From positions 22,904-86,903 of the forward strand of contig CAAEUE010000014.1 in assembly GCA_900759015.1 (NCBI GenBank): a stretch of 64,000 nucleotides of DNA, given 5' to 3'. The notes below the pieces were generated by a model. The model made no database searches and was not told where the DNA came from. It saw only the letters and a list, made by a program, of their open reading frames with translations. Below, piece after piece: positions 2,900 through 63,140 of this stretch (position 1 is its first letter; each line of letters starts with the position of its first letter). A program made the position numbers and the translations under genes. This stretch comes from Clostridia bacterium. Its GTDB lineage: Bacteria > Bacillota > Clostridia > TANB77 > CAG-508.

Positions 2900-2952
2900 G
2901 GGATTTAAGGAACGTCCCCAAATCCCTCCTAGAAACATGCCAAAATCCCTAT
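2900..2952. repeat. GGGACG-loop palindromic intergenic repeat (one full copy plus a half copy)
   Basis: gggatttaaggaacgtccccaaatccc, then ccaaaatccctattttt. Same family as at 4885, 14450, 21196, 26307, 33862 and 45079. Confidence 0.7.
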
Positions 2953-4278: not shown

Positions 4279-4506
4279 TTAATTTTGAACTATTTCGAAT
4301 CTATGTTTTTGTCCTGTGATATTATCTGGTCTTTCTGGAATTTCTGCTAAAAAATCTTTTTCTGGTCTTACCCAAATCTTTCCATCTTCTTTATGATTAT
4401 ATACAACCATTCTTTCTTGAGTTTCCGAATCTAAAGCTACATTTAATACTTGATGATAAGTTCCTTTGAAATGTCTGTAAGTTTTTCCAATTTCTACATG
4501 GCTCAT
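4279..4506 (-). CDS. small DUF1653-like protein (75 aa), first gene of the serS operon
   Basis: MSHVEIGKTYRHFKGTYHQVLNVA...WVRPEKDF pattern. RBS GGAGG lies 8 nt upstream of the ATG at 4506. The ORF-track start further upstream lacks an RBS. Confidence 0.6.
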   Translation of the reverse strand: MSHVEIGKTYRHFKGTYHQVLNVALDSETQERMVVYNHKEDGKIWVRPEKDFLAEIPERPDNITGQKHRFEIVQN

Positions 4507-4574
4507 AAAAATACCTCCATTATATAAAATATATTCTAACAAATTGGACTAAAACAAGTACAATTTAATTTAGA

Positions 4575-4800
4575 CAAACAAAAATCGTCCTTATATAAAA
4601 ATATAAGGACGAATATAATCCGCGGTGCCACCTTAAGTTATTATAAAAATAATACACTCAATTAGTAGGGTAACCGCCTAACTTACGGTTTAGTTTTCAC
4701 TAAAAACATCTAAGAGTAGATTCGCATATAAATTTTATTTACTTACACCACCCGTAAACTCTCTTAAAAAATTAAATATGTTACTATTCTCTTATCAAAC
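4575..4800 (-). promoter_or_regulatory. T-box leader (probable Ser specifier) controlling the DUF1653-serS operon
   Basis: On the minus strand there is an AGAGAG stem I motif, a candidate specifier AAUCUAC (UCU=Ser), the T-box core AACUUAAGGUGGCACCGCGG (plus strand 4621-4640) and then a terminator hairpin CGUCCUUAUAU/AUAUAAGGACG with a U-run (4578-4612). Confidence 0.75.
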
Positions 4801-4884
4801 GTTTATATTAATATGTAACACATTTTAACATAATATGTATGAATATTCAATAAAAATTGTAAAAAATTATTATATGAATTTGAT

Positions 4885-4912
4885 GGGGATTTAGGGACGT
4901 TGTTTAAATCCC
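4885..4912. repeat. GGGACG-loop palindromic repeat
   Basis: ggggatttagggacgttgtttaaatccc, immediately upstream of the promoter of the 4986 ORF. Confidence 0.7.
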
Positions 4913-4921
4913 TATTGGATA

Positions 4922-4957
4922 CTTGGAAAATTATGTTAAGTATGGTATAATAAAATG
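4922..4957 (+). promoter_or_regulatory. sigma-A-like promoter of the GC-rich islet
   Basis: TTGGAA, 17-nt spacer, TGgTATAAT (extended -10). Confidence 0.5.
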
Positions 4958-4985
4958 CAGAAAAATTGAAGGAGGACTTTAAACA

Positions 4986-5336
4986 ATGAGAGAGTCAAGG
5001 AAAAATAGCGAGAAGCTATTCTTACTGAAGGTATGCTTACCTACAGTGTATGAGGAAATAGGAGATGATGGAGTCCAAGCAATAGAACAGGGCTGGGCTA
5101 AAGAACAGGATTATAGATTTATAAATGATCTTGTTCAAAAGTATGTAGCAAAAGCTACAAAAGAAGTAATTTCGTATGAGGGCAGTATGAAGGAGAAGAT
5201 AGCATTAATCAAAACCTTTAACTACTTCTTATATGCGTATATTGAGAGAAAAAGCCCAAAAACGCTGGAAGAACTTGAGGAGTTTGTTAAAGAATACTAT
5301 AGCAATGTTGGAAAAGCAGTCAAATTAGGAGGTTAA
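4986..5336 (+). CDS. hypothetical protein, 116 aa, on a higher-GC islet
   Basis: RBS GAAGGAGG. GC is visibly higher than in flanking DNA. No recognisable motif. Confidence 0.55.
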   Translation: MRESRKNSEKLFLLKVCLPTVYEEIGDDGVQAIEQGWAKEQDYRFINDLVQKYVAKATKEVISYEGSMKEKIALIKTFNYFLYAYIERKSPKTLEELEEFVKEYYSNVGKAVKLGG

Positions 5337-5340
5337 GGTT

Positions 5341-5916
5341 ATGTTCAACAAAATCGACAAGATGTCACGCAAAGATTTGGAGGAAGCAATACGTGAGTAT
5401 AAGGATTTCTCCAAGTATAGTCGGAAAGATCTGGAGAAGGAATTAAGAGTTCTTCTTCCAGATATTAATTTGAACGAATTTTCTGACCAGGAGTTGGAAG
5501 ATTTGCTAAGAAGCAATTATACATTCGAGGACTATAGCACCGAAGAGCTTCGGGAAGAAGCAAGGAGACATGAACGCTTCGAAGAGTGGACCAGAGAGGA
5601 GCTCGAAGAAGATTATGAACAGTTAGAGCAGCCACAATCAAAGGTTGAACGATATAAGACTATAAGATGGATTCTTATAGCAGTGCTCTGTGCTTTTTTA
5701 GGATACTACTATGGAAGCATGAATACAAAGCTTGAATATCTCGAACAGAGGACCGAGCAACTGCAGCAGGAGCTTACTGTGATGGAACAGGAAAATAATC
5801 TGTTAGAAGACAGAGTTGATACTCTGTCAGATATTATAGATTTGATAATAATCTATGTAACGTCTGACGAGCTTCCGGGAGCAGAAAATCCGGGTACATC
5901 AGCACAAATCATCTAA
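5341..5916 (+). CDS. hypothetical acidic coiled-coil protein with one TM helix, 191 aa, on the higher-GC islet
   Basis: RBS GGAGG 6 nt upstream. Glu/Arg-rich N-terminal half, a TM segment IRWILIAVLCAFLGYYYG and a C-terminal leucine-heptad region. Confidence 0.55.
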   Translation: MFNKIDKMSRKDLEEAIREYKDFSKYSRKDLEKELRVLLPDINLNEFSDQELEDLLRSNYTFEDYSTEELREEARRHERFEEWTREELEEDYEQLEQPQSKVERYKTIRWILIAVLCAFLGYYYGSMNTKLEYLEQRTEQLQQELTVMEQENNLLEDRVDTLSDIIDLIIIYVTSDELPGAENPGTSAQII

Positions 5917-5940
5917 AGAACCAAAACTTCACATCTTTTT

Positions 5941-5960
5941 CCCCTGGCGAAAGCCAGGGG
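5941..5960 (+). terminator. GC-rich GNRA-tetraloop hairpin (CCCCTGGC-GAAA-GCCAGGGG) ending the islet
   Basis: Perfect 8-bp G/C stem with a GAAA loop, atypical for this AT-rich genome. A weak T-tract follows. Confidence 0.5.
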
Positions 5961-5995
5961 CATTTCCATTTTAGAGAATAAAATTTAAGAAAAAA

Positions 5996-6035
5996 CGAAA
6001 TTTTGTTTGACAAACAAAAAATCATATGATAGTAT
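5996..6035 (+). promoter_or_regulatory. lexA promoter with an overlapping degenerate Cheo/LexA box
   Basis: CGAAATTTTGTTTG (12/14 to CGAACnnnnGTTCG) overlaps TTGACA (6007-6012). A 17-nt spacer then TAGTAT (6030-6035). Confidence 0.5.
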
Positions 6036-6064
6036 GTAAAAAAATAAAGTGGAGGCGTGAACAA

Positions 6065-6706
6065 GTGAAAAAAGATAAAAGTGATTTAAATAAAAGAGAG
6101 GTAGCAATCTTAAACTTTATATCAAAACAAATAAAAGCAAACCAATATCCACCATCAGTAAGAGAAATTTGTAAAGCTGTAGGACTAAATTCAACAGCAA
6201 CAGTACATGGATATTTAGAGAAATTAGAGCAAAAAGGTTATATAAGAAAAGAATCTCAAAAAGGAAGAGCATTAAGAGTTGTTAATGAAGATGATGTTAT
6301 AAGAAAACCAAAAGATTTATATTCTGGTAAAGAATTAGTAGATGTACCAGTTGTAGGAAAAATAACTGCAGGTGCACCAATTTTAGCAGTAGAAAATATA
6401 ACAGATACTTTCCCAATTCCTTTAGACTTCGTAGGAAATTCAGAAAGCTTTATGCTAACTGTTAGAGGAGAAAGTATGATAGAAGCAGGTATTTTAGATG
6501 GTGACTATATATTAGTAAAACAACAAAATACTGCAGAAAATGGTGAAATTGTTGTAGCTTTAATAGATGACGAAGCAACAGTAAAAACATTCTATAAAGA
6601 AAAAGATTATATAAGATTACAACCAGAGAATCATACAATGGCTCCAATAATTGTTCCAGATTGTAAAATACTTGGTAAAGTAGCCGGCGTATTTAGAAAA
6701 ATGTAG
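6065..6706 (+). CDS. lexA: LexA repressor
   Basis: Winged-helix N-terminus, S24 peptidase C-terminus with Ala-Gly cleavage site (GKITAGAP), Ser (RGESM) and Lys ([12 protein letters not shown]). GTG start sits 9 nt after GGAGG. The ORF-track ATG at 6026 precedes the promoter -10. Confidence 0.9.
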
Positions 6707-6755
6707 TATAAAATAAAACAACTTAAGACATAATATATTTTAGGTGAATATATTA

Positions 6756-6920
6756 TGAAAAAAGAAAAAGAGATTAACGAAATAGAAGTTGGGGAAGATG
6801 TAAGTAGAAATGGTGAATTCATACCAACAAAATTTGCGTGGATAAGCTTAGGCTTTCAAAAAGAGAATGCAAAGCGCTTACAAAATATAACCAAAAAAGA
6901 TGATAAACATAGTAAGTAAA
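6756..6920 (+). CDS. small basic protein (54 aa) downstream of lexA
   Basis: RBS AGGTGA 7 nt upstream. MKKEKEINEIEVGEDVSRNGEFIPTKFAWISLGFQKENAKRLQNITKKDDKHSK. Not in the ORF track (under 60 aa). Confidence 0.35.
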
Positions 6921-22821: not shown

Positions 22822-23271
22822 ATGAGAAAACTTAAAAATTGTAAGATTTTTGATCTGTATGGACGGAGGATGCAAGAGGAGGAAAATCCACATTTTGTAG
22901 TAGTTGTTGCAGATGTGGAAGATGACAAGACAATATGTGAGTATGGAATTCTGAATAAGGACAAGTTTGAGCAATCTGATGAGGTAGTATATGACATTGA
23001 ATCTTTTGCAGAAATGCCGGCGACGGATTCAACCATAAAAGAAAGGGGTTGTATTTTTTGTGCAGCAATGCCAAAGAGTTCAAAAACTACTATTCCGACA
23101 TGGCCTATGTTTGTGAAATATAAATCAGATAGCACAAATGTAGATGACGAAGAGGTTTCAATTGTCTGCGTATCCGAAGAGAGGGTTCAAGTGTTGAAAA
23201 CAAAACTTTCGGAGACCAACGATGCTGGCTTTAAAGTTGGAGACAGTTTCTACAGAGTTGGTGTAATGTAA
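22822..23271 (+). CDS. hypothetical protein, 149 aa, paralogous N-terminus (MRKLKNCKIFDLYGRR), higher-GC islet
   Basis: RBS AAAGGAG. N-terminal block aligns with the 21456 product. Confidence 0.55.
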   Translation: MRKLKNCKIFDLYGRRMQEEENPHFVVVVADVEDDKTICEYGILNKDKFEQSDEVVYDIESFAEMPATDSTIKERGCIFCAAMPKSSKTTIPTWPMFVKYKSDSTNVDDEEVSIVCVSEERVQVLKTKLSETNDAGFKVGDSFYRVGVM

Positions 23272-26306: not shown

Positions 26307-26408
26307 AGGGAAAAAAGGACCGTCCCCGAATCCCTGGAAACCTCCCAAATCCCTGGAAACCTCCCAAATCCCTGGAAACGTCCCCAAACCCTTGGAACGT
26401 CCCAAAAA
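26307..26408. repeat. GGGACG-family repeat followed by 4 tandem ~19-bp units (aatccctggaaacctccca)
   Basis: agggaaaaaaggaccgtccccgaatccc then four contiguous units of 19, 19, 20 and 19 bp. There are no spacers, so this is not a CRISPR. Confidence 0.75.
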
Positions 26409-27401
26409 CTATTTTTCTATCATTTTTTCTACTATTTGTATTGCATTTGATGCTGCACCTTTTCGTATATTATCAGCGACTACCCAAAGATTTACACCAT
26501 TTTCTACACTAAAATCTCTTCTAATTCTTCCTACAAAAACTTCATCATGCCCATTTGCATTTGTAGCTAGAGGATAAAGCTCTGAAGAAATATCATCTTG
26601 AACGATTATTCCTTCAAAATTTTTAAGTGTTTCTACTAATTCAGAAAGTTCAAATGGCTTTTCAAATTCAACATTTATAGATTCACTATGTGAATTTTCT
26701 ACTGGAACCCTAACTGTAGTTGCAGTTATTCTTAAATCGGGTTTCTTTAAAATTTTTCTTGTTTCATTTATCATTTTCATTTCTTCTTTGGTATAACCAT
26801 TTTCTGTGAATACATCTATATGTGGCAAACAATTATTATAAATTGGGTATGGGAATTTTTCTAATTTATTAATTCCTTTTCTACCATTTTCTAAATCATT
26901 TAAGCCTTTTTGACCTGCTCCAGAAACAGCTTGGTATGTAGAATATACAATTCTTTTTATTGTATATTTATCATCTAAAGCTTTTAATGGTAAAACCGCT
27001 TGTATAGTAGAGCAATTTGGATTTGCAATTATTCCATGATTATTTTTAATTTCTTCTGGATTAACCTCTGGTACAACTAATGGTACGTCTTTATCCATTC
27101 TAAATGCACTACTATTGTCTACTACAATACAACCTTTTGAGGCTGCAATTGGAGCATATTTTTTAGATGTCTCGCCACCAGCAGAAAATATTGCAAAGTC
27201 AAATCCCTCATCAAAAGAGTGTTCAGTTAATTCTTTTACAACATATTCTTTATTCATAAATGTAACTTTTTTGCCAGCAGATTTATTTGAGGCAAATAAA
27301 ACATATTCACTAATTGGTAGATTTTTTTCTTCTAATACTTTTAGTGCAGTTCTACCTACTACACCTGTAGCACCTACAATTGCTAATTTGTAATTTTTCA
27401 T
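26409..27401 (-). CDS. asd: aspartate-semialdehyde dehydrogenase
   Basis: MKNYKLAIVGATGVVG NAD fold, active-site Cys (NPNCSTI) and His. RBS GAGGTG before the ATG at 27401. Confidence 0.9.
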   Translation of the reverse strand: MKNYKLAIVGATGVVGRTALKVLEEKNLPISEYVLFASNKSAGKKVTFMNKEYVVKELTEHSFDEGFDFAIFSAGGETSKKYAPIAASKGCIVVDNSSAFRMDKDVPLVVPEVNPEEIKNNHGIIANPNCSTIQAVLPLKALDDKYTIKRIVYSTYQAVSGAGQKGLNDLENGRKGINKLEKFPYPIYNNCLPHIDVFTENGYTKEEMKMINETRKILKKPDLRITATTVRVPVENSHSESINVEFEKPFELSELVETLKNFEGIIVQDDISSELYPLATNANGHDEVFVGRIRRDFSVENGVNLWVVADNIRKGAASNAIQIVEKMIEK

Positions 27402-30383: not shown

Positions 30384-30424
30384 AGATGCACATAAAAAAA
30401 GACAAAATAAGGACAACACAGTTA

Positions 30425-30640
30425 TAAATTAGTCTTTAAGAGAGCTAGATGTATGCTGAAATTCTAGTAAGATAAAATATAATTGTTATCACCTTATATG
30501 TTGCGAAACTGAACTAATAGTAAGTTTTGACGTATATTCTGCGTTAAAGAAATTAGAGAGAATAACGTAAGTTATTAAATTAGGTGGTACCGCGGAATTA
30601 TGCCCTTTTCGTCCTAAACAGGATGAAAAGGGCTTTTTGA
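30425..30640 (+). promoter_or_regulatory. T-box leader (Ile specifier candidate AUU/AUC) of ileS
   Basis: AAGAGAG stem I, a GAAAUUCUAG loop and the T-box core AAAUUAGGUGGUACCGCGG (30577-30595). The terminator is GCCCUUUUCGUCC...GGAUGAAAAGGGC then UUUUU (30602-30638). Confidence 0.8.
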
Positions 30641-30707: not shown

Positions 30708-33700
30708 GTGTACAAAAAAGTAGAACTTAAAGACGGTTTTGTAGGCATGGAAAATGATGTAGCAAAACTATGGAAAGAAAAAGACATTGTTAAGAAAAAC
30801 TTTGCAATGAACGAAGGAAAAAGATACTTCACATTTTATGATGGACCTCCAACAGCAAATGGAAGACCACATGTTGGACATATCGAAACAAGGGTAATGA
30901 AAGACATTATACCAAGATACAAAGTAATGAAAGGTTACAAAGTATTAAGAAAAGCTGGTTGGGATACACATGGACTTCCAGTTGAACTAGAAATAGAAAA
31001 AGAATTAGGAATTTCAGGAAAACAACAAATAGAAGAATATGGTGTAGAAAAATTCGTAAAGAAATGTAAAGAAAGTGTTTTCACATATGTTCATCTATGG
31101 GAAGAAATGACAAACAAAGTAGGATTCTGGGTAGATATGGAAAAACCATATGTAACATATCATAATGAATATATAGAATCTGTATGGTGGGCACTTAAAG
31201 AAATGTGGAAAAAGGGATTACTATATGAAGGTCATAAAGTAATGCCATATTGCCCAAGATGTGGAACAGCACTTTCATCACATGAAGTTGCTCAAGGGTA
31301 TAAAGATGTAAAAGATTTAACTTGTATAGCTAAATTTAAAGTAAAAGGTGAAGAAAATAAATATATTTTAGCTTGGACAACAACACCTTGGACATTACCA
31401 TCAAACTTAGCATTATGTGTTAATAAAGCATACACATATGCAGATGTAAAAGTAAATGTTGGAACTGAGGAAGAACCAAAATATGAAGTATATGTTTTAG
31501 CTAAAGATTTGGTAGAAACAGTATTAAAAGACAAAGAATATGAAGTCTTAAAAGAATATAAAGGAACAGAATTATTAGGAACAAAATATGAACAACTAAT
31601 GCCATTTGCAAAAGTAGATGGAAAAGCATTCGAAGTAATCCATGGGGACTATGTAACATTAACAGATGGTACAGGAATAGTACACATTGCACCAGCATAT
31701 GGTGAAGATGATAGTTTAGTTGCAAAACAAAATGGAATAACTTTTGTAAATTTAGTAGATAAAGAAGGAAAATTTGTTCCAGAAGTAGAACCTTGGGCAG
31801 GCAAATTCGTAAGAGATTGTAATGAAGGTATCTGTAAATGGTTAGAAGAAGAAAATAAATTGTTCAGTAAAGAAAAACATCTACACTCTTATCCACATTG
31901 CTGGAGATGTGACACACCACTTTTATATTATCCAAAAGAAAGTTGGTTTGTTGCAATGAGCAAACTAAGAGACAATTTATTAAAAAATAATGACACAATA
32001 AATTGGATGCCAGAAACAATTAAAACAGGAAGATTTGGAAAATTCTTAGAGAATGTTATAGATTGGGGAATCTCAAGAGATAGATATTGGGGAACTCCAC
32101 TTCCAATTTGGACTTGTGAATGTGGTCACCAAGAATGTATTGGAAGTATAGCAGAATTAAAAGAAAAAGGAATAAATGTACCAGACGATATAGAACTTCA
32201 TAAACCATATATTGATGATGTACATCTAAAATGTCCACATTGTGGTAAAGAAATGACAAGAGCAAAAGAAGTTATAGATTGTTGGTTCGATTCTGGTTCA
32301 ATGCCTTTTGCACAATGGCATTATCCATTCGAAAACAAAGAAATATTCGAAGCAAACTTCCCAGCTCAGTTTATTTCAGAAGCTATAGACCAAACAAGAG
32401 GATGGTTCTATACACTACTTGCAGTTTCTACATGTTTATTTGATAGATCATCATATGAAAACTGTATAGTATTAGGACATGTTCTAGATGACAAAGGACA
32501 AAAAATGTCTAAATCTAAAAAGAATGGTGTAGATCCATTTGAATTACTAGATACAGTTGGAGCAGATGCTACTAGATGGCATTTCTATACATGTAGCGCA
32601 CCATGGATTCCAACAAGATTATCTGTAAAAAGTGTACAAGAAACACAAAGAAAATTCTTAAGTACATTATGGAATGTATATTCATTCTATGTTCTATATG
32701 CAGAAATAGATGGGTTTAATCCATTAAACTACAAAGATTTTAAAGTAACAAATGTAATGGATAAATGGATACTTTCTAAAATGTATACATTAATAAAAGA
32801 AGTAGATGCAAAATTAGATAAATATGACATAACAGGAGCTGCTTTATTAATAGAAGACTTTACAGATGAACTTTCTAATTGGTATGTTCGTAGAAACAGA
32901 GAAAGATTCTGGGCAAGTGGAATGGAAGATGACAAAGTTGGAGCATATGTAACTTTATATACAGTATTAGTTAATTTAGTAAAAGTTGCAGCACCTTTTG
33001 TACCATTTATAACAGACGAAATTTACCAAAATTTAGTTGTTAATTTAAATAAAGAAGCACCAGAAAGTGTACATCTATGCTTATGGCCAGAAGTAAATGA
33101 AGCTGAAATAGATAAAGATTTAGAAAAAGAAATGGATTTAGCATACAAGATTGTTAAATTAGGTAGAAGTGCAAGAAATGCAGCTAATATCAAAAATAGA
33201 CAACCACTTTCAGAAATGCTAATTTCTGTAGGAACACTTCCAGAATATTATGGAGACATCGTAAAAGATGAACTAAATGTAAAAGAAGTAGTTCTAGGTG
33301 CAGATATGTCTAAATACGTTGACTTCGAAATAAAACCAAATCTACCAGTTTTAGGAAAAGAATATGGAAAATTAATACCAAAAATTAGAGAAGCAATCTC
33401 TAAACTAAATCAAATGGATTTAGCAAATAAAGTAAAAAACGGTGGAGTAGAATATATCGAAGTAGAAGACGAACAAATACCATTAGACGAATCTAATTTA
33501 TTAGTAACAATGCAAGGTAAAGAAGGATATGCCTTTGCAGGTGAAGGTGAACTTGGAGTTGTATTAGAAACAACAATAACACTAGAACTAAAAGAAGAAG
33601 GATATTTAAGAGAAATTTTATCTAAAGTACAAAACATGAGAAAAGATAGAGACTTCGAAGTATTAGATAGAATAAATTTATACTTTGCCAATAATGATAC

Positions 33701-33848
33701 ATTAAAAGAAGTTATAGAAAAATATAAAGAACAAATAATGAAAGACACTTTAGCAGACAATATCTTCTACAATGAAAAAAGAGACAACTATGTAGAAACA
33801 AAAATAAACGATGAAAAAATAGATATAGATGTTGAAGTAGTAAAATAA
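30708..33848 (+). CDS. ileS: isoleucyl-tRNA synthetase (long form, 1046 aa)
   Basis: HVGH (HIGH) motif, KMSKS, CP1 editing domain and a C-terminal Zn-binding cluster. Confidence 0.95.
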
Positions 33849-33861
33849 AAATAAAAAAGAA

Positions 33862-33947
33862 ATTTGGGGACGGTCCTCGCAGGGATTTGGGGACGTTCCT
33901 TAAATCCCTTTTTTGGACTTTAGGGACGGAGCTTAAAGTTCACTGGG
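33862..33947. repeat. cluster of GGGACG-loop palindromic repeats (3 units including a GAACTTT-stem variant)
   Basis: tttggggacggtcctcgcaggg, gggatttggggacgttccttaaatccc and gactttagggacggagcttaaagttcac. Confidence 0.7.
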
Positions 33948-35668: not shown

Positions 35669-36031
35669 ATGAGAAAAACGGAAGTAACCAATCTAATGTT
35701 ACTCTCTTTAGACCTAAAGAGAGTAGATGAGTTTAAAGTTGCAGAAGAGGCAGAAAACTTGAAGAATGCGATAACTATTCAAGGAATAGAAAACACAATA
35801 GTTTACTTCTGCAGAAATTCCGAAGTGTCAGAATGCCTTGTTTCTGAACTTACAATGCTTGAAGTCTGTAGCATAATTATTCTATCTATAATGGGATATG
35901 ATTATGCTGGGTTATTAAAAATATTTGATATGCCAATTGACTTTAAGAAAGAATTGTCTAAACAGGGAAAGACTCAAATTCAAAGATGTAAAACTGTGAA
36001 ACAGTTCATTGAAGAATATATTAAAAAGTAA
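35669..36031 (+). CDS. hypothetical protein (120 aa) lying between the duplicated segments
   Basis: RBS AGAGGAAAAAAG. A terminator hairpin ccagctttattgctgg plus T-run follows (36064-36090). Confidence 0.5.
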   Translation: MRKTEVTNLMLLSLDLKRVDEFKVAEEAENLKNAITIQGIENTIVYFCRNSEVSECLVSELTMLEVCSIIILSIMGYDYAGLLKIFDMPIDFKKELSKQGKTQIQRCKTVKQFIEEYIKK

Positions 36032-52040: not shown

Positions 52041-52406
52041 ATGAGAGAAGTATTAGCAGAAGCAAATGTAGTAGAAACAATGCGGAAAGTGATTGTTGAA
52101 TGCATTCGGGACAACGAATGTGAGAACACGCAAATTTGGCTTAATGATGAAGTAGTAAAGAAACTTCAGGATGCCCAGATTTATGGAACGATTAATTATC
52201 CTTATGAAGGATATACTATGTTGGCTTTTGAACTCAGGACGGGAGAAAAAATGGAAATAACATACAACAGGGAAAAAAGTATTGCTCTAAAAAATTGGCA
52301 TAATGCATGGAGTAACCTGAATGTTATTAAATACGTATATTTTCCGGATTCCAAAGAATATTTCTTCTTTGGAGCTACAGAGGAGAAGATTTTAGTAATT
52401 AAATAA
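52041..52406 (+). CDS. hypothetical protein (121 aa) with locally elevated GC
   Basis: RBS AGGAGGAAG. GC clearly above flanks. Followed by a non-canonical hairpin catggctttcctac...gtaggggagccatg (52410-52455). Confidence 0.5.
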   Translation: MREVLAEANVVETMRKVIVECIRDNECENTQIWLNDEVVKKLQDAQIYGTINYPYEGYTMLAFELRTGEKMEITYNREKSIALKNWHNAWSNLNVIKYVYFPDSKEYFFFGATEEKILVIK

Positions 52407-60921: not shown

Positions 60922-61887
60922 TTAAGCAACGTAGAAGTTGTTAAATGGATCTCGTATGGTTTCCTGCAGACCGATTAGGTCCAGAGTTTCCCCATTTTTG
61001 GAGAAGTATGAGTCTAGTTTGACCTTTTCTGGATCAAAGACAACCTTTATAGCAGTTTGCCTTTTTTCTTCGGCTTCCCGCTCTTCTGGGGTGAGTTCTT
61101 TGCTGGTGTCTGCTCCATATCTTTCATCTTTGTGTGAAAGATGTGTTGCAACATATTCTGCGTGGAAGTGGCTAGCAAATGTCCTTAATTGGACTTCGAT
61201 TGTTAAGCCACTCTTTGTTACAAACACCATATGAAGAGCTTGATAGCCCTTCTTTTTAGGAGCAACAAAATAGTCTTTGACATATTTTGCATATTCCGGG
61301 TAAATGAGCCCCTTTTGGGGAACATATACCTTTGGGAAAAGTTCCTGATTAAAGCCAAGGCCATTTTGTGGAGATGGCTTTATCAACTGGTAACCCTTCC
61401 GTATGACGAAGAAGGCGATTACATTGTTAGCTACTTCGTAGAGTTGACTAATTGACTTTTCATCATCATATCGGCTTGTTCCTATTACTATCCTGAAGCC
61501 CAACTCGTCGTTGATAGAGTATGGATCAAGACCATCATAGATGAATGTTCGTACTTTCTCTAAAAATGCGACATAGTTTTTTAGTCGGCCAGAAATGGAA
61601 CAAGGAATCTTTAGACTTGCTAAAAATTTTTTTAATTCAATAATCTCCTGTTCCAATTCCGCTAAGGAACTGTAATTATAATAGCGGTTCAAGTAGTTTT
61701 CGAGCTTCGTGTGATACATGTCCAAATAATTTGGTATGAATTCATTCCCACGAAGCTTGTCTGCTTCGCTCATTACTTCATCTAGATACAGGCGTTGAAC
61801 CTGTATTAGTGAACCAACTCCCCGATAGAGGATTGGGGAAACATCTGGAAACCAGATGTTTTGCACGGTTTGTACTTTGTCGGACAT
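60922..61887 (-). CDS. RelA/SpoT-domain nucleotidyltransferase (small alarmone synthetase / toxSAS-like), 321 aa, on a ~40% GC islet
   Basis: Synthetase motifs SGRLKN (G[RK]xK), ELGFRIV (DxxGxRI), GYQALH...EVQLRT and HAEY. RBS AGGAGG 8 nt before the ATG at 61887. The ORF-track start at 62142 has no RBS. Confidence 0.8.
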   Translation of the reverse strand: MSDKVQTVQNIWFPDVSPILYRGVGSLIQVQRLYLDEVMSEADKLRGNEFIPNYLDMYHTKLENYLNRYYNYSSLAELEQEIIELKKFLASLKIPCSISGRLKNYVAFLEKVRTFIYDGLDPYSINDELGFRIVIGTSRYDDEKSISQLYEVANNVIAFFVIRKGYQLIKPSPQNGLGFNQELFPKVYVPQKGLIYPEYAKYVKDYFVAPKKKGYQALHMVFVTKSGLTIEVQLRTFASHFHAEYVATHLSHKDERYGADTSKELTPEEREAEEKRQTAIKVVFDPEKVKLDSYFSKNGETLDLIGLQETIRDPFNNFYVA

Positions 61888-62477: not shown

Positions 62478-63140
62478 ATGAAAGTAATTAACATCAGAAA
62501 AAACGATTCATCAAGAGGGGCTCTTATACGGTTAGAGGGACTTCAAGGCGAAATCTGCGTAACATATTCAGACGGTGAATTAGAACTTTTACCACCACTA
62601 GATATGGATTTGCTAGAATTTGCAAAATTGATACAGCATTCTTTTGAGGGTAAAATTGATATTCTTCCGAAAGCAGAAGAATACTTTGAAGCAAAAATTT
62701 CATCTATATCATTCGTTTTTAAGGGCATAGGCATTACTGTAAATGCTGAAAATTCTAACTGGTATAATACGATTAAAGCGTATACAATTGGAAAGGAAAA
62801 AGCCCAATATCCAGACTCATTTATAGTTAAGCTGGATGAAGCAACAGAAATGTTTTATAAAAGCAAAGATGCACGTGAAGTATGGATGAATACTATAGGA
62901 TGTAAAAATTATGAGACCATATTAAATGTTGCTCGTAGATGGGCGAAATTGATGCAATTCTATATGAAAGAGGAGCATCGGAAACTGGAAGACATTGTAG
63001 AAGAGTCATATAAACAGGCAGTGCTCAATGAAGATTCTGAAACTACAAGATTACTTGCTACAGATGCATTAGTTTTGTGCTGGAAGTATGGTACTGAACT
63101 AAAAGAATATCTTTCGACTAAGAAAGATAGAACGGCCTAA
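62478..63140 (+). CDS. hypothetical protein (220 aa), about 40% GC
   Basis: RBS AAGGAGG 6 nt upstream. No recognisable motif. Confidence 0.55.
   Translation: MKVINIRKNDSSRGALIRLEGLQGEICVTYSDGELELLPPLDMDLLEFAKLIQHSFEGKIDILPKAEEYFEAKISSISFVFKGIGITVNAENSNWYNTIKAYTIGKEKAQYPDSFIVKLDEATEMFYKSKDAREVWMNTIGCKNYETILNVARRWAKLMQFYMKEEHRKLEDIVEESYKQAVLNEDSETTRLLATDALVLCWKYGTELKEYLSTKKDRTA

Follow-up and report, generated by a model that had tools for sequence, protein, structure and literature searches.

The serS-lexA spacer carries a translationally coupled gene pair

A stretch of 64,000 nucleotides (nt) of contig CAAEUE010000014.1 from a Clostridia bacterium, hereafter the window (overall GC 0.276), was analysed with regard to two small genes, ORF1 and ORF2, located between the T-box leader of the DUF1653-serS operon and lexA. 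They were the sole long open reading frames (ORFs) between these two elements. Together with their promoter, designated P*, and a terminator, they very probably form a genuine two-gene operon, whose site between the serS T-box and lexA is fixed yet hypervariable in a CAG-354-like clade of uncultured gut Clostridia. The elements of the operon, and the repeat at the left edge of the genes carried at this site (the cargo), were as follows (positions are those of the window; aa, amino acids; RBS, ribosome-binding site; pI, isoelectric point):

4923-4951, plus strand: promoter P*, with -35 TTGGAA (4923-4928), a 17-nt spacer and the extended -10 TGgTATAAT (TG at 4943-4944, TATAAT at 4946-4951)
4986-5336, plus strand: ORF1, coding for a 116-aa soluble all-helical protein of an orphan family, pI 6.4; RBS AGGAGG at 4970-4975
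5341-5916, plus strand: ORF2, coding for a predicted 191-aa single-pass membrane protein; RBS AGGAGG at 5327-5332
5941-5973, plus strand: intrinsic terminator of the pair found in the terminator scan, CCCCTGGC-GAAA-GCCAGGGG followed by the interrupted T-tract CATTTCCATTTT
4886-4912, plus strand: copy of a dispersed native GC-rich hairpin repeat, GGGATTTRGGGACGTTNNTTAAATCCC, at the left edge of the cargo

Both ORFs lie exactly where the original prediction, made earlier for this DNA, had put them, and the tight translational coupling claimed there was borne out: 4 nt separate the ORF1 stop codon (5334-5336) from the ORF2 start at 5341, and the AGGAGG of ORF2 (5327-5332) is located within the last codons of ORF1. 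The ratio of nonsynonymous to synonymous substitution rates (dN/dS) was 0.10-0.29 for ORF1 and 0.19-0.28 for ORF2, and the aligned relatives shared 30 and 41 invariant columns, respectively. ORF1 and ORF2 are real genes under purifying selection.

In the promoter scan, P* matched 10 of 12 consensus positions in addition to the TG of the extended -10, and judged by these boxes it looks like a constitutive sigma-A promoter. It occurred in a single copy in the window and was conserved in relatives, in agreement with the earlier statement that the pair has an extended -10 promoter of its own; across 116 loci it was seen solely ahead of cargo genes. The terminator hairpin (5941-5960) had a folding energy of -18 kcal/mol (z = -4.4). 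Pair 5 of its stem varied as U-A, U.G and C-G across relatives, a covariation which argues for selection on the terminator structure. Partial read-through from the pair into lexA is possible through the weak, interrupted T-tract.

The repeat at 4886-4912 folds at -15.4 kcal/mol. Three copies within 3 mismatches were present in the window (0 expected), the other two being located directly after the serS stop codon (2900-2926, minus strand) and after the gene for a 1033-aa protein (33882-33908, plus strand), and the core motif of the family (TTTGGGGACGTTCC; hairpin form GGGATTTGGGGACGTTCCTTAAATCCC) gave nine matches in 64 kb as compared with 0.06 expected. Sites of the family were noted at 2900-2926 (minus strand), 4886-4912 (plus strand), 14544, 21237, 26310-26410, 33863-33908 (plus strand) and 45086; the intergenic spacer at 26310-26410 is a tandem array of repeat units of about 21 nt with a GC of 0.45. 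The family looks like a REP-like (repetitive extragenic palindromic) or shared-terminator element of an AT-rich genome. Because 4886-4912 belongs to this native family, the DNA to the left of P* is native as well. The original prediction had placed the promoter right after a GGGACG repeat; the repeat does precede P*, but it is a copy of the dispersed hairpin family. The same prediction had described the GC-rich hairpin behind the pair as unlike the AT-rich terminators of the host. The hairpin is real, but since the GC-rich repeat hairpin also ends serS and another T-box-controlled gene, the host is not limited to AT-rich terminators.

Codon usage of the pair departs from that of the host

The GC content of ORF1 and ORF2 was 0.356 and 0.399, respectively, as compared with 0.276 for the window, and the excess was almost wholly confined to third codon positions, with ordinary GC at the first and second ones. 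The third-position GC content (GC3) equalled 0.34 for ORF1 and 0.42 for ORF2, compared with 0.145 for serS and 0.10 for lexA. For the 61 window ORFs that reach 100 aa or more, GC3 had a mean of 0.162 (standard deviation 0.073) and a median of 0.14; ORF2 had the highest value of all, about 3.5 standard deviations over the mean. The GC markedly above the surroundings, on which the original prediction had relied, was thus found. The excess came from codons avoided by the host (CTG, CTC, CGC, CGG, ACC, CAG, GAG and AAG), CTG being used in 18% of cases in the pair and 0% in the host, CGC and CGG together in 22% and 0%, ACC in 29% and 1% and CAG in 64% and 6%. Both GC3 and codon use are therefore atypical of the host, as expected for a horizontally acquired islet.

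High expression was considered as the source of the high GC3 and rejected, because the excess GC came from host-avoided codons and because the other high-GC3 ORFs of the window were orphan or accessory genes and not highly expressed housekeeping ones. Among the former, three small ORFs with no Pfam family (22822-23271, 35669-36031 and 52041-52406) had GC3 elevated to 0.29-0.33. A high GC3 appears to be indicative of an orphan or accessory gene here. An atypical composition was also noted for the ORFs 60922-61887 (minus strand, GC3 0.40) and 62478-63140 (plus strand, GC3 0.27), one of which has a RelA_SpoT nucleotidyltransferase region and the other of which weakly resembles the anti-Thoeris protein Tad4 (E 2.5e-7); both may be part of a mobile or phage-derived segment at the window end.

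The pair is a site-bound orphan of one clade

A LexA-based scan with one genome per species yielded 80 loci, all from uncultured Clostridia, with UMGS1570 and 'Clostridium sp. CAG:354' being the closest. The GTDB genus CAG-354 belongs to the order TANB77, family CAG-508 (bioRxiv 10.1101/2021.05.11.441322). Individual loci are referred to below by L numbers. Among the more distant relatives, trpS-obg preceded lexA in most cases, and the serS-lexA adjacency was confined to the clade of the window and a few neighbours. In all 43 loci with an ORF1 relative, lexA lay directly downstream, the site being bounded by the serS/DUF1653 T-box on the other side, and the same gene order was seen in independent metagenome assemblies.

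Searches in a large protein collection detected 70 relatives of ORF1 (at least 41% identical) and 21 of ORF2 (at least 53% identical), all unannotated. When 1.84 billion representative proteins were searched exhaustively with an ORF1 profile, six true relatives were obtained, all from the same clade; a leucine-rich-repeat protein, P0096, also came up in this search and was discarded as spurious. The pair is a site-bound orphan of the CAG-354-like clade of the order TANB77.

The composition of the pair (GC3 of 0.34 and 0.42 vs. a median of 0.14, codons unused by the host, a GC-rich terminator) could be explained by a recent insertion into the serS-lexA spacer of this genome from a higher-GC donor. 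The spacer itself also offers some support. In L023, from a more distant genus, the T-box is located 131 nt from lexA with nothing in between, and in L037 different ORFs occupy the same site on the opposite strand. Since the L023 spacer is empty, the genes were added to this spacer at some point. However, every sampled clade member held the pair at this site, sister species among them, whose pairs (ORF1 57-59% and ORF2 30-36% identical) have a GC3 close to that of the host. The GC3 of the pair was 0.26-0.43 in the species group of the window and 0.17-0.25 in the sister species L014, L015 and L113-L116, whereas host genes showed 0.06-0.18; all cargo genes were above the host values, to a differing degree. 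As the sister species hold the pair at the same site, the acquisition predates the divergence of the species. Furthermore, searches of 5.8 billion clustered and of 1.84 billion representative proteins yielded neither a donor nor any outside relative, a native repeat directly precedes the unit, and no integrase, transposase, tRNA gene or flanking direct repeats were found near the pair, apart from a promoter duplication in relatives; the neighbouring genes are serS, DUF1653, lexA and those of an ATP-binding cassette (ABC) transporter. Neither patchiness among close relatives nor unrelated contexts, as would be typical of an islet, were observed for the pair; only an additional 85-aa cassette, described below, was patchy. 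A recent arrival of the pair as independent foreign cargo is thus very unlikely, the recency in particular being largely refuted. The high GC3 may possibly come from an old import from an unsampled donor, from GC-biased conversion at a recombination hotspot or from selection for rare codons; in comparison with the sole outgroups to hand, synonymous sites are saturated.

Co-occurrence of the two genes and the state of the serS-lexA spacer in relatives, both proposed for checking in the original prediction, were in this way established: the pair is clade-wide at one site and the spacer is empty in L023. The claim that the pair was inserted stands relative to that distant genus, but not for this genome or species. 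Its description as independent cargo is supported by the promoter and terminator of its own and the atypical composition; the binding to one site in 43 of 43 loci and the lack of mobile relatives or mobility genes speak against it.

ORF1 is a helical orphan and ORF2 a predicted membrane-anchored coiled-coil protein

Structure predictions proposed for both products were obtained with AlphaFold. The ORF1 model was confident, with a mean predicted local distance difference test score (pLDDT) of 90, a predicted template modelling score of 0.79 and six helices, and had no fold match in PDB or BFVD (best E > 1). For ORF2, five short helices and one long helix (residues 99-174) were predicted with a low to modest confidence (mean pLDDT 64), and this model found no match in the PDB fold search. 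ORF1, ORF2 and the small paralogues described below had no family in Pfam, NCBIfam, PHROGs or PADLOC, where only sub-threshold coiled-coil or membrane-span noise was obtained (DivIC, PspB, Rz-like spanin, SlyX, LmuB and ZorB).

ORF2 (pI 4.4) starts with an acidic domain of residues 1-106 (nt 5341-5658), which comprises five repeats of 18-21 aa of the form [aromatic]-[S/T]-x-x-[D/E]-L. Hydropathy and charge distribution point to one hydrophobic segment, approximately residues 107-126 (nt 5659-5718); behind it come a coiled coil (about 127-175) and, at residues 176-191, an acidic tail. Lysine and arginine residues lie on the N-terminal side of the span, whereas the acidic coiled coil and tail are on its C-terminal side, and hence an orientation with the N-terminus inside and the C-terminus outside is suggested. 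ORF2 is accordingly predicted to have a repeat domain in the cytoplasm, one membrane span and a coiled coil on the extracytoplasmic side, an architecture in which a single span with an extracytoplasmic C-terminal part is shared, by prediction, with SOS-induced division inhibitors. The earlier view of ORF2 as an acidic coiled-coil protein with one transmembrane segment, possibly targeted to the membrane, gains support from hydropathy and AlphaFold as far as membrane anchoring is concerned.

The matches of ORF2 to the DivIC, PspB and Rz-like families were sub-threshold and at the level of architecture. With the DivIC/FtsB Pfam family PF04977, ORF2 scored 12.6 bits (cut-off 28.9, E 0.13), and weak matches to DivIC were noted for 4 of 12 small paralogues (best E 0.042). 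A PDB sequence search aligned ORF2 residues 53-113 with the secreted C. difficile protein CD630_05490 (E 0.003). This hit was dropped as short, compositionally biased and lying on the wrong side of the membrane.

The site is a small cassette array

In L001, L009, L011, L090, L093 and others, the site contained an insertion of 481-486 nt relative to the window, bounded by two copies of P*. The inserted segment comprised the second P* copy, a leader of about 120 nt, a gene for an 85-aa protein (GC 0.47, GC3 0.54-0.60) and a GC-rich terminator of its own. The protein has an N-terminal membrane span, a coiled coil and an acidic tail. Rfam had no match for the region or for the leader of the 85-aa gene. 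This extra cassette was mapped to 5456-5935 in L001 and 8366-8874 in L009 and was also present in L011, L090, L093-L095 and L098; the window lacks it (at about 4950). Only 15 database relatives of the 85-aa family were found, mostly on contigs of 1-3 kb. The single P* of the window has a left context like that of copy 1 and a right context like that of copy 2, as expected from recombination between the two copies, and a remnant of the 3' end of the cassette was present in L005.

Further short genes, one or two per relative and coding for 76-122 aa, were encountered at the site. A small gene of the same design stood alone in L016 (91 aa), L017 (96 aa) and L019 (100 aa), L020 had an intermediate 122-aa form with one N-terminal repeat, and L018 carried an ORF2-like gene without ORF1. 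In L089, an ORF1-like gene was followed, with no ORF2, by two tandem small genes (1335-1610 and 1787-2098) before lexA. The GC3 of small genes overall was 0.43-0.84, the first small gene of L089 having a GC of 0.55 and a GC3 of 0.84 as compared with 0.11-0.19 for DUF1653 and lexA on the same contig. The site very probably functions as a small cassette array, in which relatives carry extra genes for a membrane span plus a coiled coil and the window has the pair only.

Wherever the upstream sequence of a clade locus was long enough, lexA was immediately preceded by a gene for a single-pass coiled-coil protein. There were 30 distinct proteins of this kind, encoded 112-262 nt from lexA; two of them, those of L015 and L095, are ORF2 copies that are truncated or split. 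No homology between ORF2 and the 85-aa family was detectable in a profile-profile comparison (probability 1.4%), and their shared design may therefore be convergent.

Two translationally coupled, strain-variable small genes with their own promoter could also be read as a toxin-antitoxin-like pair, with ORF2 as a membrane-damaging toxin and ORF1 as its co-translated antidote. However, no toxin or antitoxin domain, including those of type II systems, was detected in Pfam, NCBIfam, PHROG or PADLOC, the genes have a single genomic context, ORF2 is large and mostly hydrophilic, and the two genes occur apart, ORF2-like without ORF1 in L018 and ORF1 without ORF2 in L089. This makes such a pair hardly probable. 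The chances are slighter still that ORF2 and the small genes are the DivIC, FtsB or FtsL of this lineage, i.e. a housekeeping divisome subunit. A membrane span and a coiled coil of the right size, the presence of at least one such gene in all cases and the weak DivIC matches of ORF2 and 4 of 12 small proteins would agree with this function, but the scores are far under the Pfam cut-off, the genes are extremely variable, use foreign codons and are gained and lost as cassettes, and outside the clade they do not occur at this site. No small DivIC- or FtsL-like protein of the host turned up when the window was scanned for one.

Alleles of the pair are shuffled between near-invariant flanks

Between the window and its nearest relatives, the proteins encoded by serS, lexA, the ABC transporter genes and two small ORFs (54 and 113 aa) were 97-100% identical, whereas identity was 74-85% for ORF1 and 76-96% for ORF2. 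At the DNA level the identity was mosaic; in comparison with L009 it was 100% at 5060-5160 and 78-79% at 5160-5360. The synonymous divergence (dS) of ORF1 between the window and L001 was 0.76, with 0.02-0.12 in the flanks, and the reverse pattern was obtained for L010 and L013, with a dS of 0.046 for ORF1 and 0.31-0.66 for the flanks. At 92% identity, 12 allele classes of ORF1 and nine of ORF2 were distinguished, in shuffled combinations, with or without a small gene. The recurrence of the same arrangements in many independent assemblies argues against assembly chimeras. Alleles and cassettes very probably pass from strain to strain and between species, the most likely route being homologous recombination through the near-invariant flanks, the T-box leader on one side and the lexA promoter and gene on the other. 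The DUF1653 gene (4279-4506, minus strand; normal GC3) had two allele classes of about 72% protein identity among genomes whose serS was 97-100% identical, so the zone affected by recombination reaches to the left of the T-box leader.

Such variation brings in the main rival explanation, a conflict module. ORF2 and its small paralogues would then act in phage exclusion, of the superinfection-exclusion type, or in membrane conflict between strains, with ORF1 as a helper, diversifying selection as the driving force and the position by lexA as incidental. As in a phage 'moron', every unit comes with a promoter and a terminator of its own, codon usage is foreign, cassettes are gained and lost, and the allele diversity is far above that of the flanks, with alleles shuffled. 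The other high-GC3 ORFs of the window are orphan or accessory as well, and contigs with the 85-aa gene are mostly 1-3 kb long, as expected where strains differ. On the other side, no relative beyond coiled-coil noise was found in phage, plasmid and viral-contig collections (INPHARED, IMG/VR and PHROGs), the pair has neither a prophage location nor phage-borne relatives as a moron or superinfection-exclusion gene would, and the PADLOC matches were coiled-coil noise only. The genes were never located away from lexA (43 of 43 loci), and at least one such gene was present in every clade locus, a pattern more in line with a constant need than with an optional defence; the dN/dS of 0.1-0.3 means that there is no gene-wide positive selection. 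A conflict module is on balance rather unlikely.

The pair lacks a LexA operator

The conserved neighbours of the site were as follows:

4602-4807, minus strand: T-box leader of the DUF1653-serS operon (Rfam RF00230, 108.7 bits)
5996-6009, plus strand: LexA operator, CGAAATTTTGTTTG, overlapping the lexA -35; a context element, not part of the cargo
up to 6035, plus strand: lexA promoter found in the promoter scan, -35 TTGACA (6007-6012) and -10 TGaTAGTAT ending at 6035
6065-6706, plus strand: lexA, 213 aa from GTG 6065, with the domains LexA_DNA_bind and Peptidase_S24 (Pfam E 1e-19 and 1.5e-36)

The T-box leader was 97-100% identical in relatives and forms the conserved left neighbour of the variable site, and the LexA protein was 97-100% identical across the clade. 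The GTG at 6065 is most likely the lexA start, giving 213 aa, because LexA of the relatives is called at this length. Across the order, the operator and the lexA promoter were conserved in all of a set of 94 distinct promoters, from which a weight matrix of the operator was built. The presumed operator of the order is CAAAC-N4-GTTTG (CGAAA-TTTT-GTTTG in the clade of the window), overlapping the -35; it amounts to the Firmicute CGAAC-N4-GTTCG box shifted towards AT. A second TTTGTTTG element between -35 and -10 was present in many lexA promoters (the L009-L088 set).

The matrix score was 22.3 at the lexA operator, whereas elsewhere in 4543-6064, P* and the leader of the pair included, and before the cargo genes of relatives no operator-like site was detected (maximum 6.7 bits). 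Pattern searches likewise found only the operator of lexA itself. This operator lies downstream of the terminator of the pair, in agreement with the original prediction, which had set the promoter of the pair upstream of the LexA box. Direct control of the pair by LexA, and so by the SOS response, is thus unsupported, as no operator-like site exists at P* or the cargo genes of relatives. A canonical SOS division inhibitor, under LexA repression and inducible by DNA damage in the manner of yneA or sosA, would account for the lexA adjacency and the single-pass membrane architecture, but in view of the operator scores, the agreeing pattern searches and the operator position it is highly improbable. 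The original prediction had named, as a finding that would speak against it, a conserved SOS-induced division inhibitor of the lineage with normal GC elsewhere. Conservation in the lineage and a near-host GC3 in L014 and L113-L116 were found, whereas SOS induction finds no support in the sequence.

Two further observations concern the neighbourhood. A 54-aa ORF (6755-6919, plus strand), 48 nt past lexA, was kept throughout the clade (76-100% identity), with weak matches (34-51%) in several distant relatives, directly after lexA in L055, L059 and L069; it has no membrane span and no family, and it is probably co-transcribed with lexA and hence LexA-controlled. A second T-box leader (30396-30619, plus strand) was located ahead of the 1033-aa ORF (30747-33848), presumably an aminoacyl-tRNA synthetase gene, which ends with the same terminal repeat hairpin as serS.

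Possible role of the pair

Judged from position and architecture alone, the pair may be a lexA-linked modulator of division or envelope synthesis that is not directly repressed by LexA, a reading to which we assign a probability of about 0.35. It is favoured because a gene of this kind is constantly present directly before lexA throughout the clade. The proteins would act at the cytoplasmic membrane as coiled-coil binders of the division or envelope-synthesis machinery, with ORF1 as a cytoplasmic partner or regulator of the N-terminal domain of ORF2. In this role they would be analogues of the non-homologous single-pass inhibitors YneA, SosA, ChiZ and DivS, encoded beside lexA in other Gram-positives. 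Transcription would start from the constitutive-looking P* without operation of LexA, leaving control to the post-transcriptional level, where rare GC-ending codons might throttle translation. The sole possible coupling to the SOS response would be read-through into lexA.

Several points weigh against this role. Neither P* nor the cargo genes of relatives have a site resembling the LexA operator, the pair is co-directional with lexA whereas the known inhibitor genes are divergent from it, and a strong constitutive-looking promoter would be odd for a division inhibitor. The similarity to DivIC/FtsB is far sub-threshold (E 0.04-0.13; 12.6 vs. 28.9 bits). Within-species variation, cassette gain and loss and foreign codons are more typical of conflict or accessory genes, and the lexA adjacency could reflect a permissive intergenic hotspot, with its different ORFs in L037 and its empty state in L023.

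A more elaborate version of the modulator appears decidedly unlikely. The space before lexA would then be a dedicated array of fast-evolving coiled-coil 'decoys' which bind the divisome (FtsL/DivIC/FtsW-type) as a checkpoint for damage or stress, with constitutive transcription, translation throttled by rare codons and coupling through lexA read-through, the alleles being diversified by exchange between strains. Should this hold, a clostridial type of division inhibitor would be identified together with a new mode of its control. We know of no SOS-linked division inhibitor named for Clostridia. A C. difficile lexA mutant forms filaments, and the paper names no inhibitor (PMC4689574). For a clade of abundant uncultured human-gut bacteria, the single-pass coiled-coil gene before lexA is a concrete and testable inhibitor candidate. 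If the products are ordinary accessory membrane proteins, the locus is of local interest only. Whatever the function, the site is a clean, small chromosomal hotspot where orphan genes with foreign codons are shuffled between strains through ultra-conserved flanks, and it holds site-bound orphan genes with a GC3 of 0.4-0.84 within a genome of about 27% GC.

Comparison with known systems

Division inhibitors encoded next to lexA, i.e. YneA of Bacillus and Listeria, SosA of Staphylococcus, ChiZ of Mycobacterium and DivS of Corynebacterium, have no common sequence but share their location and a single membrane span, and the SosA homologues are 25-60% identical among staphylococci (PMC6851548). YneA is reported to act on FtsW (PMC13396833). 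Like these genes, the pair is located directly beside lexA (43 of 43 loci), and its ORF2 would be a short, fast-evolving protein with one span and an extracytoplasmic C-terminal part, with no similarity between lineages. Unlike them, it lies upstream of lexA in tandem, while the known genes are divergent (PMC6851548), and it has no LexA operator and no LysM domain. It also has a soluble partner, ORF1, and ORF2 has a predicted cytoplasmic repeat domain of 106 aa; several paralogous cassettes and a strong within-species variation set it apart as well.

Like DivIC, FtsB and FtsL, ORF2 is predicted to cross the membrane once and to continue into a coiled coil of some 40 residues. The gp56 protein of phage SPO1 is a small membrane protein which blocks division via DivIC/FtsL (bioRxiv 10.1101/2020.02.06.938217), and ORF2 resembles it in being a small membrane protein; the action of gp56 on DivIC/FtsL is the kind of mechanism proposed here for the pair. 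In contrast to both groups, the pair shows no significant similarity (DivIC E 0.04-0.13) and has no phage relatives.

The pair also recalls elements of other origin. Phage morons are self-contained units of a promoter, gene and terminator that differ in composition from their surroundings. The pair resembles them and superinfection-exclusion proteins in being a self-contained, strain-variable unit with a GC-rich terminator, an atypical composition and a small membrane protein as its product; unlike them, it lies outside any prophage, lacks relatives among phages and viruses and occupies a fixed chromosomal site by the genuine host lexA. Capsule and O-antigen loci are hypervariable loci exchanged through conserved flanking genes. 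Conserved flanks with divergent alleles between them, an atypical composition and a gene history discordant with that of the flanks are common to them and the pair, whereas the site of the pair is only 0.5-1.6 kb long, its products are not biosynthetic and its GC is above that of the host rather than below. The finding represents either lexA-adjacent single-pass membrane proteins or a hypervariable locus exchanged through its flanks.

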